This document shows, one piece after another, positions 1 through 5,116 of a stretch of DNA of 64,000 bases. Made by a program: the position numbers and the translations under genes. Position 1 is the first letter of the stretch, and each line of letters starts with the position of its first letter. Source of the stretch: Verrucomicrobiota bacterium (GTDB taxonomy: Bacteria; Verrucomicrobiota; Verrucomicrobiia; Verrucomicrobiales; JBCCJK01); the NCBI GenBank assembly GCA_039027815.1, contig JBCCJK010000002.1, positions 25,610 through 89,609 on the forward strand, read 5' to 3'. The notes under the pieces are model-generated. The model saw nothing but the letters and a program-made list of their open reading frames with translations, did not search any database and was not told the DNA's origin.

Positions 1-344
1 AGCTGCGGGCCATCTTCGGGCTGACGGAGCCTGCGGATCGCGCCAAGATTCTCGCCCTGGTGGCCGAGCTGCCCGGGGTCAAGAAAGCGCTCGCGCTCGA
101 TGGGCAGTCGGAGGGCGATGACTTCGCCGCCTCCGCCAAGGCCACCTTGGAGCAGTTGAGCGCGCTGACTCGCAAGCTGGGCATCGACGACGCCAGCACC
201 TTTGCCATCCAGACTTCCAATGGGCTCTTGAGCTTCTTCACTTACGGCAATGTCACCTTGGCCATCCTGCATGATGGTGCCAAGTTTGCGCCGGGCGTGC
301 GCGAGAAGCTCATCATTTGCACTCGAGAGCTGGCCGCTTTTTGA
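1..344 (+). CDS. Roadblock/LC7 (MglB-like) domain protein, 5'-partial (reading frame is open to the window edge)
   Basis: The frame containing ORF 60..344 stays open back to position 3. Small alpha/beta protein directly upstream of an MglA homolog. Roadblock-like pattern (..GVKKALALDGQ.. / ..LLSFFTYGNVTLAILHD..). Confidence 0.5.
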   Translation, partial: LRAIFGLTEPADRAKILALVAELPGVKKALALDGQSEGDDFAASAKATLEQLSALTRKLGIDDASTFAIQTSNGLLSFFTYGNVTLAILHDGAKFAPGVREKLIICTRELAAF

Positions 345-415
345 AGCGGATCGTCTCTCGATTGCTCGGGCTCCTCTCTCGCCCTCTCCCTGCCTGAACT
401 CCATCCTCTCTCTCC

Positions 416-1051
416 ATGGCTGTCATCAACGAAGACCGGCGCGAAGCCGTCTTGAAACTCGTCTACTGCGGAACGGCTCTCGGCGGCAAAACCAGCAATC
501 TCAATCATATCCACGGAGCTCTCCCGAGCGACAAGCGGGGGGATATGGTCTCGCTGGCAACCGCCGCCGACCGCACTCTTTTCTTTGATTTTCTCCCGGT
601 CAATGCGGTCGAGATCTGCGGCTACCAAGTGAAGTTTCAGCTCTACACCGTCCCCGGGCAGATCGTCTACAACGCCACCCGCCAGCTGGTGCTGAAGGGG
701 GTGGATGGGATCGTCTTCGTGGCCGACTCGGATGAGCGTCGCTTGGAAGAGAACGCGGAATCCCTCCGTTTCACTGAACAAAACCTGAAGGACAATGGCG
801 TGGAGCCAACCCAGCTCCCGACCGTTCTCCAATACAACAAACGCGATCTCCCAAACGCCGCCCCCATTGAAAACCTGCGTTATCTCCTCAACCGAGGCCT
901 GGTCCCGCGTCCCGAGTTCGAATCGGTCGCGACCGAGGGTCACCAAGTCTTCTCCACCATGGACGCCCTGACCCAACTCGTCCTCCAACGCTTCGAATCC
1001 TTCGTGACCCAAGAGGGAGCCAAGTCCGGCAGCAAGGTGGCGGCCAGCTAA
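416..1051 (+). CDS. mglA: MglA-family Ras-like small GTPase
   Basis: Near full-length resemblance to Myxococcus MglA: P-loop LVYCGTALGGKTSN, DRTLFFDFLP, switch II YTVPGQ, LKGVDGIVFVADS, G4 motif YNKRD. Confidence 0.85.
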   Translation: MAVINEDRREAVLKLVYCGTALGGKTSNLNHIHGALPSDKRGDMVSLATAADRTLFFDFLPVNAVEICGYQVKFQLYTVPGQIVYNATRQLVLKGVDGIVFVADSDERRLEENAESLRFTEQNLKDNGVEPTQLPTVLQYNKRDLPNAAPIENLRYLLNRGLVPRPEFESVATEGHQVFSTMDALTQLVLQRFESFVTQEGAKSGSKVAAS

Positions 1052-1072
1052 GACCTCGAAAAGCCTCCCACC

Positions 1073-1564
1073 ATGGAATCCGAGCACATGTTATTGGATG
1101 AGACGGCCCTGGCCCGCTTGGACCATGTCTTTGGCAATTTTCTGCAACAATCCCGCTGCCAATGGATCATGCTGGTGGACCAGACCGGGGCCATGCTCCG
1201 TCTCCGGAGCATGGCGGAAGCGCCGCCCGAAGTGGTGGGGCCGCTGGCGGCGGCTGCCGGGAGTGCCATGGCTCAGTTGTCCCAATGGTCCGGGCATGGA
1301 GCCGAGCCTTTCATCACGAGCGCGGTTGGCAGCAAGGGACTGTGTCTCTGGCCCTTCATGACCCGGCTCTTTTTGGCCTGCGGCTACGATCAGCAGAGTG
1401 CTCCGGCCCACCTTCGCGAATGCGCCGAGCGGTTTTCGCCTGTCTTTCTCGGCGCCATGTTGGGGACCGAAGGCGGGGAGGGCGCGGCTCCCGGGCTGGC
1501 TCAGTTCCCCTACCCAGCCCCGCCGGAGGGAGGCCAGCCGGATCGGTCGTTTCCGCAGGTCTGA
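1073..1564 (+). CDS. Second Roadblock/LC7-like (MglB/MglC-like) protein with a Pro/Gly-rich tail
   Basis: Lies 22 nt downstream of mglA. Core IMLVDQTGAMLRL...GSKGLCLWPFMTRLFLACGY fits the Roadblock fold pattern, but similarity is weak. Confidence 0.45.
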   Translation: MESEHMLLDETALARLDHVFGNFLQQSRCQWIMLVDQTGAMLRLRSMAEAPPEVVGPLAAAAGSAMAQLSQWSGHGAEPFITSAVGSKGLCLWPFMTRLFLACGYDQQSAPAHLRECAERFSPVFLGAMLGTEGGEGAAPGLAQFPYPAPPEGGQPDRSFPQV

Positions 1565-1652
1565 TCGCTTCTCGCTGAGCAGGTTGTGGGAGAAACTTTC
1601 CCCTTTTCCCTGAGGCCAGGTTGTTGTAAATAACCTTCGCATCGCGCCCGCG

Positions 1653-2342
1653 ATGCTCTCTCGACTCATGCTGGAGCTGATTCAGAAAGGAGGCCCGCTC
1701 ATGTGGCTGTTGCTTGGCTGCAGCATCGTGGTCTTCGCCATCGGTTTGGAGCGTCTCTTCGTCTACCGGAGCGCTTCCCTGCATCTCTCCCCCCTTCTTC
1801 AAGGCTTGGCGGTCCTGATCCGTCGCAAGAATTTTGCGGAAGCCTTGCGGGAATCCGCGGCCACGCCCGGGCCGATCGCCCGCGTCATCCACGCAGGGCT
1901 CCTTCGCCACGATTTGCCCCGGGGGGAACTGCGAGAGGTGGTGCGGGAGGCGGGGCAACTGGAGGTGCCGCGCTTGGAGCGCTTTTTGCCCATTCTCTTT
2001 TCCATCGCGATGGTGGCTCCGCTCATTGGTTTGCTCGGCACCCTCATCGGTCTCATCGACACCTGGATCAGCGTGAGTGAGGGGGCGGGCTTTGTCACGC
2101 CCGCCCGGCTTTCCCGAGGGGTGTATGAAAGTCTGGTCACCTCGGCCGCGGGCTTGACGGTGGCGCTTCCGGCTTACCTGACCTTTGCCTACCTCGCGAG
2201 CAAGGCGCGGGATTTGCGGCACGATATGGAGCGAGCGGGGATTGAGATTGTGAATTTGATCGACGATGCCCGCCGGGATGGGGAAATCGTGGAGTTTCGT
2301 CGGGAGACTCCTAAGAAGCGTCAAGAGCGGGCCGGCTCATGA
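1653..2342 (+). CDS. MotA/TolQ/ExbB-family proton channel protein
   Basis: N-terminal GGPLMWLLLGCSIVVFAIGLERL and C-terminal APLIGLLGTLIGLIDTW are typical ExbB/TolQ signatures. Three predicted TM segments. Confidence 0.8.
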   Translation: MLSRLMLELIQKGGPLMWLLLGCSIVVFAIGLERLFVYRSASLHLSPLLQGLAVLIRRKNFAEALRESAATPGPIARVIHAGLLRHDLPRGELREVVREAGQLEVPRLERFLPILFSIAMVAPLIGLLGTLIGLIDTWISVSEGAGFVTPARLSRGVYESLVTSAAGLTVALPAYLTFAYLASKARDLRHDMERAGIEIVNLIDDARRDGEIVEFRRETPKKRQERAGS

Positions 2343-2773
2343 AATTGGAAAGCACGCTGCCCCAGCAAGCGTGGACGCTGCATCTCTCGCCGGTGACCGA
2401 TGTCGTCCTCACGCTCCTGATTTTCTTTCTCCTGCTCTCGAACTTGATCCAGCCCAGTGGGGTGGAGCTGTCGGCTCCTCAGACGCGCTTTCACTTTGAT
2501 CCGACGGGCTTTGCCGAGGCCCGCTTGCTCTCGGTCACGGCCGCGGTGGAGGAGCCGGTCGTCTATCTCGACAATCGACGACTGAGCCTGCCCGAGTTCC
2601 AAGCCGAGCTGGATAAGATGCTCATGAAGGAGGGAGAGGACTTGCCCAGCTTTGTCATCAAAGCGGATGCCAGCGCTTCCCATGGAGTGGTCTTCCAAAT
2701 CGCGGAGGCGATCCAACTGCGAGGCATGCGGGCCGCTCTCCTGAATTTGGGAGAGGGGTCCCCACCGCCATGA
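2339..2773 (+). CDS. ExbD/TolR-family protein
   Basis: ATGA overlap with the upstream gene. Single TM segment SPVTDVVLTLLIFFLLL followed by a periplasmic domain. Confidence 0.75.
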   Translation: MKLESTLPQQAWTLHLSPVTDVVLTLLIFFLLLSNLIQPSGVELSAPQTRFHFDPTGFAEARLLSVTAAVEEPVVYLDNRRLSLPEFQAELDKMLMKEGEDLPSFVIKADASASHGVVFQIAEAIQLRGMRAALLNLGEGSPPP

Positions 2774-3501
2774 AAACGGACGAAGCGAAAGGCCCGGGCC
2801 TCCTCTTTTCTTGGCAGGGCAAAGTGGGGCGCTGGTGGGGCGCGTTGGCCTGTCTCGCGCTCTCGGCGCTCGTCCATCTGGTCCTGCTGCTGCTTTTTGT
2901 GAGCAAGCCCGCCACAGGCACGGTCGAGGAGCATGTGGGCGGCGAACTGGAAATCATCTCGGTCAGCACCCCGCTTGGTCGAGAGCTCCTCGCCACCATG
3001 GAGCATCGGGATCTCAGCTTCTTCTCCCCCGAGCCCGAAGCCCTGCCGGAGACCCCTTTCACGGCGGCCCCGGTTCCAGAATACCTAGCGCATCGCCTGC
3101 GGGCCTTGGAATCGCCTCCAGAGCGGGAAGAACGGGCCCTCCCGACTGTTTCCGAATGGGGGCGGGTCTACTTTCCGGAGCAGGGTGCGGCGATGGCGGC
3201 GCCTGGAGCGCCCGCTGAGCCGAGCCACCTGACGCCTCCGGTGCAAGTTTCTGGCCCCCTGGCCCAACGAGCGCTGCGGCATCTCCCCGTCCCCGAGGAG
3301 AGCGCTTGGCTGCGAGCGCTCGCGGGAGAGGTGGTGCGGGCGCGGGTGGAGGTCGATGCCGAAGGCCGCGTCCGGGGGCTCCTCTTGGACGCCACTCCCA
3401 ACTCGGAGATCGATCCTGGACTCCAGGCCTTCTTGCGCTCCCTGCGCTTCGCTCCCCAGCCGGGGCAGACCCGGCTTTCCGGGTGGATTCAAATCAACTG
3501 A
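2770..3501 (+). CDS. TonB-like energy-transducer protein (N-terminal TM anchor, Pro-rich linker, TonB_C-like end)
   Basis: ATGA overlap with exbD-like gene. TM anchor WWGALACLALSALVHLVLLLLF, Pro/Glu-rich middle, C-terminal ARVEVDAEGRVRGLLLDATP...LRFAPQP. Confidence 0.5.
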   Translation: MKTDEAKGPGLLFSWQGKVGRWWGALACLALSALVHLVLLLLFVSKPATGTVEEHVGGELEIISVSTPLGRELLATMEHRDLSFFSPEPEALPETPFTAAPVPEYLAHRLRALESPPEREERALPTVSEWGRVYFPEQGAAMAAPGAPAEPSHLTPPVQVSGPLAQRALRHLPVPEESAWLRALAGEVVRARVEVDAEGRVRGLLLDATPNSEIDPGLQAFLRSLRFAPQPGQTRLSGWIQIN

Positions 3502-3507
3502 GGCCCC

Positions 3508-3747
3508 ATGATTCAGGTCACCGTCCCCTTGCTGCTCTCCCTCTTTGCCCTGGTGGGGGTCTCCCTCTTGCTCTTGGCTTGGCTGCGGAGTGAGCGGGAT
3601 CGAGGGAGGTTCGAGCAGACGGAAGCGCCCCACCGCATTCGCTGCCAGGTCTGCGGGCACGAGTTCTCGGCCAAGCCCAGCAGCCGACCCATCGCTTGCC
3701 CAGCCTGCGGAAGACGGAACGAGCGGACCTTCCAGCGCGTTCCTTGA
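3508..3747 (+). CDS. Small membrane-anchored zinc-ribbon protein
   Basis: N-terminal TM helix followed by CQVCGH...CPACGRR (two CxxC pairs). Starts 7 nt after the TonB-like stop. Confidence 0.5.
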   Translation: MIQVTVPLLLSLFALVGVSLLLLAWLRSERDRGRFEQTEAPHRIRCQVCGHEFSAKPSSRPIACPACGRRNERTFQRVP

Positions 3748-3856: not shown

Positions 3857-5116
3857 ATGAACAGCGAACGAAGAGTGGTCATTACCGGCGTGGGCGTGGT
3901 TTCGCCGATTGGCAATGACACCGAGACCTTTCTCCAGAATTCCGTGGCCGGAAAAAGCGGGATCCGTGCGATCCAGGCCTTTGACCCGAGCGAGCTGCCG
4001 GTGCGGATCGCGGGCGAGGTTCTCGATTTCAACCCCAAGGCCTACTTCAAATCGCCCAAGGATGTCCGCCGGGCGGATCGCTTCACCCAGCTCGGGCTCG
4101 CCGCTTCCAAAATGGCCTACGAGCAAGCCGGCTTTGACATCGAGACCCCACCCGAGAACGCCGATCGCATCGCGACCATGGTCAGCAGTGGGATTGGCGG
4201 TCTCCAGATCATGACGATTCAGCATGAAATCCTCATGAACAAGGGCGCGCCCCGCGTCTCCCCCTTTGTCATTCCCATGATGATCGCCAATATCACGAGC
4301 GGAATTGTTTCCATGGAGTATGGGCTGCGCGGTCCCAACATGTCGATCGTGACGGCCTGTGCCACCGCCAATCACAATATCGGAGAAGCCTGGCGGATCA
4401 TCAAATTCGGTGATGCGGACGCTGCTTTGGCGGGCGGTTCCGAGGCGGCTATCGTGCGCCTCGGGGTGGTGGGCTTTGCCAACATGAAGGCCCTCAGCAC
4501 CCGGAATGACGATCCGGCCGCCGCCTCTCGACCCTTCGATACAGGTCGGGATGGCTTCGTGATGGGCGAAGGTGCGGGCGTGGTCATGATTGAAGAGCTG
4601 GAGCACGCCAAAAAACGCGGGGCGGAAATTTTGGCCGAGATCACGGGCTACGGGATTTCCGCGGACGCCTACCACATCACCTCGCCCCACCCGGAGGGCG
4701 AAGGGGCCAGCCGCTGCATGGAAATGGCCCTCGGCCACGCCCAACTCAATCCCGAGGACGTCGACTATGTGAACGCCCACGGCACCTCCACCCCCTTGGG
4801 AGACATCTGCGAAACCAAGGCCATCAAGCAGACCTTCGGGGAACACGCCAAGTCTGGGCTGAAAGTCTCTTCCACCAAGTCGATGACGGGCCACCTCTTG
4901 GGAGCGGCCGGCGGCGTCGAACTGGCCGCTTGCGTGGGCGCCATTCGGGACGGAGTTATTCCCCCCACGATCAATCTGGAAGACCAGGATCCCGAGTGCG
5001 ATTTGGATTATGTGGCCAACGAGGCCCGCGAAACGCCGGTCAAGGCCGCCCTGAGCAATAGTTTCGGTTTCGGGGGTCACAATGCCTCCATCCTAGTCGA
5101 GAAATTCGAGGGATAG
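3857..5116 (+). CDS. fabF: 3-oxoacyl-ACP synthase II
   Basis: MNSERRVVITGVGVVSPIGN start, active-site TACATANH, HITSPHPEG, NAHGTSTPLGD, SFGFGGHNASI. Confidence 0.95.
   Translation: MNSERRVVITGVGVVSPIGNDTETFLQNSVAGKSGIRAIQAFDPSELPVRIAGEVLDFNPKAYFKSPKDVRRADRFTQLGLAASKMAYEQAGFDIETPPENADRIATMVSSGIGGLQIMTIQHEILMNKGAPRVSPFVIPMMIANITSGIVSMEYGLRGPNMSIVTACATANHNIGEAWRIIKFGDADAALAGGSEAAIVRLGVVGFANMKALSTRNDDPAAASRPFDTGRDGFVMGEGAGVVMIEELEHAKKRGAEILAEITGYGISADAYHITSPHPEGEGASRCMEMALGHAQLNPEDVDYVNAHGTSTPLGDICETKAIKQTFGEHAKSGLKVSSTKSMTGHLLGAAGGVELAACVGAIRDGVIPPTINLEDQDPECDLDYVANEARETPVKAALSNSFGFGGHNASILVEKFEG

Follow-up and report, generated by a model that had tools for sequence, protein, structure and literature searches.

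A group-1 MglA switch cassette next to an ExbB/ExbD/TonB-like operon with a membrane zinc-ribbon gene in a Verrucomicrobiota genome

Two gene modules side by side

We analyzed the first 3.75 kb of a 64,000-nt stretch of DNA from a Verrucomicrobiota bacterium (assembly GCA_039027815.1, contig JBCCJK010000002.1, positions 25,610 to 89,609, G+C content 61%; this whole stretch is called the window in the following). A gene for a small GTPase of the MglA type and its Roadblock-domain partners is located here directly upstream of genes for an ExbB/ExbD/TonB-like energizing machine and for a membrane zinc-ribbon protein of 79 amino acids (aa), which we call ZnR79. The seven open reading frames (ORFs), all on the plus strand (Table 1), fall into two modules with a sharp internal organization and a soft junction between them. 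On balance we favor the view that these are two separate, juxtaposed units, namely a polarity-switch cassette and an envelope energizer of the TonB or Tol type. The adjacency would accordingly represent a juxtaposition, possibly with read-through, and not a dedicated GTPase-motor system. Gene identities, module boundaries and conservation patterns are shown by the data.

An earlier interpretation made from the letters of the window (the sequence-only reading) had described seven same-strand genes with short gaps or 4-nt overlaps. The coordinates were verified, as were both ATGA overlaps, which lie at 2339–2342 between exbB and exbD and at 2770–2773 between exbD and the tonB-like gene. The mglB-like ORF starts 21 nt past the end of mglA and the ORF of ZnR79 6 nt past the tonB-like stop codon. 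The gene identities proposed at that time were essentially right, apart from the small size assumed for the first ORF.

Conservation and linkage of the two modules

Conservation was followed from both sides of the junction. On the MglA side one genome per GTDB species was scanned, which yielded 80 loci; 60 of them carry at least 6 kb downstream of mglA and are informative for linkage. On the ExbB side metagenomes were searched with an ExbB alignment, which also yielded 80 loci. The informative sets comprise 37 loci in which 2.2 kb or more follow exbB, 32 in which 3 kb or more precede it and 14 loci with sequence after fabF.

A trio consisting of a large Roadblock-domain protein, MglA and MglB is a conserved feature throughout Verrucomicrobiota. 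It is present in most of the 80 MglA loci, and 59 of these show no exbB nearby. An exbB block lies within a few kb of mglA in 16 of the 60 informative loci (27%). In six of these it follows immediately downstream of the cassette on the same strand, and in ten it is convergent, with fabF facing mglB. In four further loci, on short contigs, all that is seen is a convergent fabF. The physical linkage of switch and motor, which had been the central point of the sequence-only reading, does recur, but it is absent from the other 44 informative MglA loci and from about 93% of the loci with an ExbB block. In a neighbor-joining tree of MglA the convergent layout is confined to one Chthoniobacterales clade.

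The exbB block itself holds together far better. ExbB orthologues, 47–57% identical, were found in 17 genome loci and in the 80 metagenome loci. Both exbD and the ZnR79 gene are present in all 37 metagenome loci with sufficient sequence after exbB, so that the block is complete in each of them. It is followed by fabF in every locus with enough contig, in genomes as well as in metagenomes, and a divergent dcw cluster (rsmH, ftsI, murE, murF) is located upstream of exbB in 29 of 32 loci. An MglA cassette, on the other hand, was found upstream of exbB in 2 of the same 32 loci and after fabF in 1 of 14 (about 6–7%). The association of the exbB unit with fabF and dcw is far tighter than that with mglA. 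Since the unit is located between the dcw division and cell-wall cluster and fabF in most relatives, it looks like a housekeeping envelope energizer of either the TonB or the Tol type, and judged from this distribution it looks like that of the lineage, phylum-wide. The same-strand linked loci lack dcw on either side.

Several further features of the exbB neighborhood were noticed. Examples flanked by dcw are found in the loci L127 (3336–9516) and L030 (16347–18456) and also in L101, L119, L141, L159 and L094, the order of the genes beside the block being rsmH, an ftsL-sized ORF, ftsI, murE and murF. One or two proteins of about 170 aa with an RHS/YD-repeat match are often encoded immediately before exbB, beside dcw. 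A gene of the IMPDH/NMO family (about 390 aa, Pfam IMPDH 7e-52; for example L030 13014–14192, minus strand) is usual between ZnR79 and fabF, and its product may be an enoyl-ACP-reductase-like enzyme. This gene is missing in the window (between 3747 and 3857) as well as in L022, L087, L131 and L158.

The junction between the modules

The distance from the mglB-like gene to exbB amounts to 88 nt if exbB starts at its first ATG (1653) and to 103 nt if it starts at ATG 1668. Orthologues of exbB start consistently at M-x4-(Q/K)-KGG, the equivalent of which in the window is ATG 1668 (MLELIQKGG). The longer distance is therefore more consistent than the 88-nt gap (1565–1652) reported before. A separate promoter or terminator between 1564 and 1653, with uncorrelated expression, had been named as a sign against a joint system. 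Within 1565–1667 a promoter scan found no sigma-70-like promoter, and the region shows neither significant RNA structure (z −0.93) nor an Rfam match. A weak terminator-like hairpin at 1588–1602 is not above chance (8 found versus 5.7±2.3 expected). Neither signal was thus found above chance, but a gap is kept in all same-strand relatives, where it measures about 90–290 nt, as against 4-nt overlaps to gaps of about 70 nt inside the modules. Co-transcription of the two modules, to which the sequence-only reading had looked for confirmation, is not a conserved property, since ten of the 16 linked loci are convergent and co-transcription is impossible there.

The MglA switch cassette

By its motifs and overall similarity the GTPase of the window is a textbook group-1 MglA. 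It aligns full-length (residues 1–193) to the MglA structures of Thermus thermophilus (3t12_A, 3.9e-56) and Myxococcus xanthus (6hjh_A, 3.4e-55). The P-loop reads GTALGGKT, the DRT motif places an Arg finger beside the switch-I Thr, G3 is TVPGQ and G4 is NKRD. The window protein contains LYTVPGQ, which is invariant in our MglA alignment (A1), as are D52, R53 and T54; the segment AADRTLFFDF pairs with ETDRTLFFDF of M. xanthus. Group-1 MglA proteins are distinguished by TVPGQ instead of DxxGQ at G3 and by an Arg finger beside the G2 threonine (PMC4316618). The window protein has both, together with the full-length similarity and a coupled mglB gene adjoining mglA. In NCBI the identical protein is entered under the name ‘GTPase domain-containing protein’ from the metagenome-assembled genome (MAG) of a Verrucomicrobiota bacterium, and several relatives have been called MglA by JGI. 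The nearest relatives are 50–63% identical and mostly Verrucomicrobial. A survey from 2014 (Wuichet & Sogaard-Andersen) contained no report of a group-1 MglA in Verrucomicrobia (PMC4316618). Thousands of relatives overall now exist, and the MglA described here is an added member of a known family.

The partial ORF at the beginning of the window corresponds to the last 113 codons of a gene for a 626-aa protein rich in Pro, Ala and Ser, which is found whole on an identical 11-kb contig (L001 229–2109). Most Verrucomicrobial loci encode a homologue, of 329–1257 aa, immediately before mglA, and the conserved domain of the family comprises the C-terminal ~110 residues. Robl_LC7 is matched by 19 of 31 of these C-terminal domains (best 2.9e-10), and the family profile matches Roadblock proteins in the PDB (7f8f at 4e-8, MglC 7ct3 at 0.023). 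The copy in the window has no Pfam match of its own; it is homologous to Robl_LC7-positive members, for example to that of L003 at 2.8e-17. By this homology we assign it tentatively to the Roadblock domains, though not to a specifically MglB-like type. An origin as a duplicate of MglB was considered and rejected, as there is no profile-profile similarity to the MglB family. The large Pro-rich protein is probably a scaffold or localization factor and is referred to as the scaffold below.

The large Roadblock-domain proteins share a short hydrophobic and basic motif at the N-terminus, for example MAFSFRKMIS, MAFSFRNLFKKE, MTIPFLSYFKRGK, MRLPFFRSPK or MGFFKNLFSKGD. It is encoded at L001 229–270, just outside the window, and is also found in L002, L003, L009, L020, L029, L059, L072, L077, L131 and L158. 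The motif resembles an amphipathic peptide for binding to the membrane or to a partner. In MAGs of Methylomirabilota/Rokubacteria (L011, L017, L027, L048, L064, L070, L071, L073, L080 and L084) mglB is present and there is no upstream gene for a Roadblock scaffold. As these close MglA relatives lack it, the scaffold seems to be restricted to Verrucomicrobial cassettes.

The 163-aa protein encoded downstream of mglA (p163; an alternative start at 1088 would give 158 aa) ends in a Pro-rich disordered tail. It has no match to Pfam Robl_LC7, nor any other Pfam match up to E 0.1. A word-indexed homology search returned p163 itself and no close relatives, and positional orthologues were therefore taken from the related loci. 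An ORF of 155–176 aa follows mglA, often overlapping it, in 74 distinct loci, and p163 is its positional orthologue. Of the MglB-position proteins sampled, 37 of 38 match Robl_LC7, p163 being the sole exception, and the profile of this MglB family matches M. xanthus MglB (6izw_B) at 6.4e-35. A family profile built without p163 matches it weakly, both as a hidden Markov model (HMM; E 3.4e-6, the only match in the window) and in hhalign (probability 81%, E 1.2e-5, over residues 5–72). An AlphaFold2 (AF2) model of p163, for which the input alignment consisted of MglB homologues, is of modest confidence (pLDDT 60.5, about 82 for residues 11–50) and shows the element order helix-strand-strand-helix-strand-strand-helix of a Roadblock-type topology. 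The top 30 Foldseek matches of this model are all MglB (E 1.5e-4, TM scores 0.6–0.75). Profile and model together indicate that p163 is a very divergent MglB, possibly one that is degenerating. In L158 (2727–3953), and also in L163 and L160, the MglB-like protein is different in size, with 408 aa and a highly acidic tail of about 270 residues.

Two Roadblock partners, proposed as a GTPase-activating protein (GAP) plus a guanine nucleotide exchange factor (GEF) or adaptor, had been assigned to MglA by the sequence-only reading, with HMM matches and fold prediction suggested as checks. One of them holds as the MglB-like p163; the other is a domain of the 626-aa protein and not a small protein. 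Neither window protein matches Robl_LC7, but both families do. As to the fold, p163 is modeled as MglB-like, and the single-sequence AF2 model of the window copy of the upstream domain is unusable (pLDDT 46.9).

It is conceivable that p163 is a decaying MglB without GAP function and that the Roadblock domain of the large upstream protein is the real partner of MglA, in which case the cassette would contain one functional Roadblock regulator and not a GAP-plus-GEF pair. The identity of p163 to the 37 other family members, which are well conserved among themselves, is only 9–22%, it is the one protein sampled that escapes Pfam, and the family profile reaches its N-terminal half only. AF2 confidence falls below 50 at residues 75–87 and from residue 133 on, and three related same-strand loci have retained scaffold and mglA without any mglB. 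The ORF is nevertheless intact, with a third-position GC content of 0.76 as in its neighbors, the predicted fold is still best matched by MglB, and the helix-2 segment LAAAAGSA aligns with the conserved ALAAGAF motif of the family. We consider the loss of GAP function quite improbable on this evidence, and the same applies to a cassette with a single working regulator.

The ExbB/ExbD/TonB-like operon

The assignments of ExbB and ExbD are secure by their domain matches. ExbB matches Pfam MotA_ExbB at 1.1e-22 (80.6 bits, cutoff 22.9) and ExbD matches Pfam ExbD at 9e-14 (52.1 bits, cutoff 25.4). In NCBIfam the ExbB protein scores better with tolQ (4.5e-20, 72.3 bits, cutoff 221) than with exbB (5.8e-10, 39.3 bits, cutoff 206), and both proteins score far under the equivalog cutoffs, whether for TolQ/TolR or for ExbB/ExbD. 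The transmembrane (TM) segment of ExbD, PVTDVVLTLLIFF, contains an Asp. Such a TM Asp is expected of ExbD/TolR proteins, and its role is known for the family.

The TonB-like call, also made by the sequence-only reading, is weak but consistent. The protein matches TIGR01352 (tonB_Cterm) at E 0.0022 with 18.3 bits, below the cutoff of 27.1. It is laid out with a short cytoplasmic N-terminus of about 24 residues, one TM helix, a linker and a divergent TonB_C-like domain. Pfam TonB_C is matched by 9 of 23 family members (best 2.3e-4) and TonB_2 by 3 of 23, and the best PDB matches of the family profile are C-terminal domains of TonB (6i97, E 0.0063). In the alignment of 23 orthologues there is no variation at A7, W15, H36, G199 and F227 and hardly any at S32; the TM helix carries S32-x3-H36. 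S-x3-H is the helix signature of TonB and TolA by which they couple to ExbB/TolQ. The same alignment revealed a conserved L-x-F-x-W in the N-terminus (window 2770–2850, residues 11–15), in which W15 is accompanied by a nearly invariant F13. It is a candidate docking peptide.

ZnR79 begins with a TM helix, which is followed by a basic stretch and then by a zinc ribbon of the pattern CxxC-x14-CPxCG-xxNER, which would face the cytoplasm. We found 50 distinct orthologues, in every case encoded right after the TonB-like gene; C46, C49, C64, P65, C67, G68 and N71-E72-R73 are invariant among them. Curated families gave generic zinc-ribbon matches only, all of them sub-threshold, and comparison with solved zinc ribbons, including the entry for GltJ, gave no specific match. 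An exhaustive search of representative sequences was swamped by multi-zinc-finger proteins and was uninformative, with few relatives of 79 aa at about 1e-7. As far as gene order in the orthologous loci tells, ZnR79 is a conserved fourth gene of the exbB operon and is not tied to mglA. Its product may serve as a membrane-anchored, cytoplasm-facing accessory of the motor unit.

Comparison with known systems

The cassette shares with the MglA/MglB systems of M. xanthus and T. thermophilus (PDB 3t12, 6izw) a full-length MglA with TVPGQ and an intrinsic Arg finger and an mglB-family gene directly after it. The cassette also encodes a second protein with a putative Roadblock domain, comparable to MglC in Myxococcus. 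It differs from the Myxococcus and Thermus switches in its Verrucomicrobiota host, in its extremely divergent MglB and in the placement of this second domain at the C-terminus of a Pro-rich protein of 626 aa, an architecture that we did not find described. No homologues of RomR/RomX, Frz or AglZ were seen near the locus.

With the Agl-Glt machinery of M. xanthus the locus has in common a TolQ/ExbB-type channel, a single-pass transducer putatively of the TonB_C type and a zinc ribbon, predicted to be cytoplasmic, near MglA/MglB. GltJ unites a zinc ribbon, a linker and GYF domain, a TM helix and TonB_C in one protein, whereas the zinc ribbon here is found on a separate 79-aa membrane protein, and the two zinc ribbons are not specifically similar in sequence. 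The locus has a single ExbD-like gene as opposed to two TolR-like subunits in the AglRQS motor, and the mglBA operon of Myxococcus does not lie beside motor genes, whereas both adjoin here. Pfam gave no match to a GYF domain in any protein examined, and Glt outer-membrane or periplasmic genes were absent from the window ORFs examined, which in 5143–64000 were the nearest downstream neighbors and ten of the largest ORFs; distant Glt homologues may be present elsewhere in the genome. Membership in the Agl-Glt system was rejected for the missing GYF domain, second TolR-like gene and Glt genes.

The ExbB-ExbD-TonB and TolQ-TolR-TolA systems of Proteobacteria show the same order of channel, plug and transducer with overlapping genes, the MotA_ExbB and ExbD domains, the S-x3-H helix and, putatively, a TonB_C-like C-terminus. 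The module differs from them in equivalog scores far below cutoff, in the invariant fourth gene ZnR79, which is outside the classical systems, and in its conserved neighbors, dcw and fabF. An assignment as Tol-Pal was likewise rejected, as no tolB or pal follows here or in relatives, where ZnR79 and fabF are found instead, and as scores stay below the cutoffs. In the literature on MglA with Verrucomicrobia, ExbB or Planctomycetes we found no earlier description of the triad of Roadblock scaffold, MglA and MglB, of the four-gene ExbB-ExbD-TonB-like-ZnR79 operon or of the linkage of mglA and exbB.

Juxtaposition or coupling

The alternative to two juxtaposed units is a functional coupling, in which the MglA/MglB switch and the scaffold recruit, position or gate the ExbB/ExbD/TonB-like machine; it is a more specific form of the GTPase-gated envelope motor put forward by the sequence-only reading. 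We regard this as rather doubtful, and with the same reserve we consider that contact would be made through a cytoplasmic handle, be it ZnR79, the F-x-W N-terminus of the TonB-like protein or the cytoplasmic domain of ExbB. Only tentatively can such a system be seen as a minimal, split version of what GltJ and AglRQS form in M. xanthus. It might serve surface motility, the placing of a Tol-like machine at pole or septum beside dcw, or localized uptake.

A number of observations speak for coupling and weigh against a mere juxtaposition. The genes mglA and exbB are adjacent far more often than a random pair of genes would be by chance, and the adjacency occurs in more than one configuration and in several clades. 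The MglA tree has the same-strand layout in three distinct clades (the window with L022 and L158; L012, L023 and L056; L020 and L059), and it cannot be converted to the convergent layout by one inversion; a single inversion linking the two was rejected since it would put dcw after fabF, which is not seen. As no terminator or promoter is demonstrable in the junction, co-transcription is possible in this genome. In L158 the end of the mglB-like gene is 37 nt from the first possible start of exbB, though 106 nt from the homology-consistent start. Partial cassettes are kept in front of exbB: in L012 (7296–8956), L023 (9905–11414) and L056 (9998–11457) scaffold and mglA are followed directly by exbB with no mglB within 7–10 kb, which suggests that the Roadblock domain of the scaffold can substitute for MglB. 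In L131 (8903–10711) and L089 (2–1058) a short scaffold-type gene stands directly upstream of exbB without mglA or mglB; the protein of L131 has 329 aa, the N-terminus MAFSF and a C-terminal Roadblock domain. There is also a precedent. In M. xanthus GltJ links the TolQR-like Agl motor to MglA (PMC11135422; PMC11761067). Its zinc ribbon binds the C-terminal helix of MglB, which increases the efficiency of the GAP four-fold, and MglA-GTP binds to its linker (PMC11135422). Like GltG, GltJ is a TonB-like protein that works with a TolQR-like motor (PMC11761067). By analogy with GltJ, a membrane zinc ribbon together with a TonB-like gene beside mglAB is suggestive of functional coupling.

Against this stand the unlinked majority of loci, seen from the MglA as well as from the ExbB side, and the convergent orientation in most linked ones. 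ZnR79 is only generically zinc-ribbon-like, without a specific match to the GltJ entry or any other, and the GYF domain, second TolR-like gene and Glt-type genes that would mark a Myxococcus-like machine are missing from the window ORFs examined. Outside Myxococcales ZnR-GYF proteins are moreover not correlated with mglAB operons (PMC11135422).

We therefore keep to two separate units. The first, a scaffold with Roadblock domain, a group-1 MglA and a divergent MglB, would constitute a Verrucomicrobial switch cassette in which MglA cycles between GTP and GDP and the Roadblock partner or partners act as GAP or regulator, in analogy to Thermus and Myxococcus. Its output would most likely consist in the spatial (polar) control of a machine of the envelope or the cell surface. 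In the second, the four-gene operon of ExbB, ExbD, a TonB/TolA-like protein and ZnR79, the ExbB/ExbD proton channel would use the proton-motive force to drive the single-pass transducer of the TonB/TolA type.

Genomic surroundings

The fabF gene starts 109 nt past the ZnR79 gene. It is genomic context and a member of neither module. The ORFs examined in the remainder of the window (5143–64000) belong to housekeeping and metabolism: an RF-1-family (ArfB-like) protein, glmM, iPGM, an M3 peptidase, an Opp-type binding protein with permeases, PGI, a MacB/FtsX-type permease, a PPDK-like enzyme, a histidine kinase and a sulfatase. No genes for pili, gliding, Glt proteins or TonB-dependent receptors were seen among them, and a profile search of the window found no paralogues of ExbB or ExbD.

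Table 1. Features of the mglA-exbB locus and the adjoining fabF gene, in window coordinates
Feature	Position	Strand	Basis or remark
Large (scaffold-like) protein with C-terminal Roadblock/LC7-like domain, 3' end (113 codons)	1..344	+	full gene L001 229–2109, 626 aa
mglA, group-1 MglA small Ras-like GTPase, 211 aa	416..1051	+	MglA structure matches, motifs
Divergent mglB-like Roadblock protein (p163), 163 aa	1073..1564	+	family profile, predicted fold, gene position
Junction between mglA cassette and exbB block	1565..1667	.	88 nt or 103 nt, depending on exbB start
exbB/tolQ-like proton-channel stator subunit, 229 aa	1653..2342 (start probably 1668)	+	Pfam MotA_ExbB
exbD/tolR-like subunit, 144 aa	2339..2773	+	Pfam ExbD
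TonB/TolA-like energy transducer, 243 aa	2770..3501	+	sub-threshold tonB_Cterm, family alignment
ZnR79, TM helix and zinc ribbon, 79 aa	3508..3747	+	50 distinct orthologues in the same position
fabF, beta-ketoacyl-ACP synthase II	3857..5116	+	TIGR03150 1.8e-188, above cutoff

Implications

To our knowledge MglA is the best-understood Ras-like polarity switch of bacteria, and what is known of its effectors comes almost exclusively from Myxococcus. The most far-reaching view of the locus is that of a minimal envelope motor under the control of a small GTPase in Verrucomicrobiota, in which MglA/MglB and the scaffold localize or gate the ExbB/ExbD/TonB-like machine via ZnR79. We judge this unlikely. 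The further idea that such a motor would be an independent or ancestral counterpart of the Myxococcus MglA-GltJ-AglRQS system, serving polar or septal remodeling beside dcw or an unrecognized surface motility, appears no less unlikely to us. If the adjacency were functional, it would provide a second and much simpler system of a small GTPase and a TolQR/ExbBD-type motor as well as a view of the ancestral connection between MglA and motors. Regardless of coupling, the Pro-rich Roadblock scaffold and ZnR79 are two uncharacterized, widely conserved Verrucomicrobial components, and both lend themselves readily to genetic work in cultured Verrucomicrobia.

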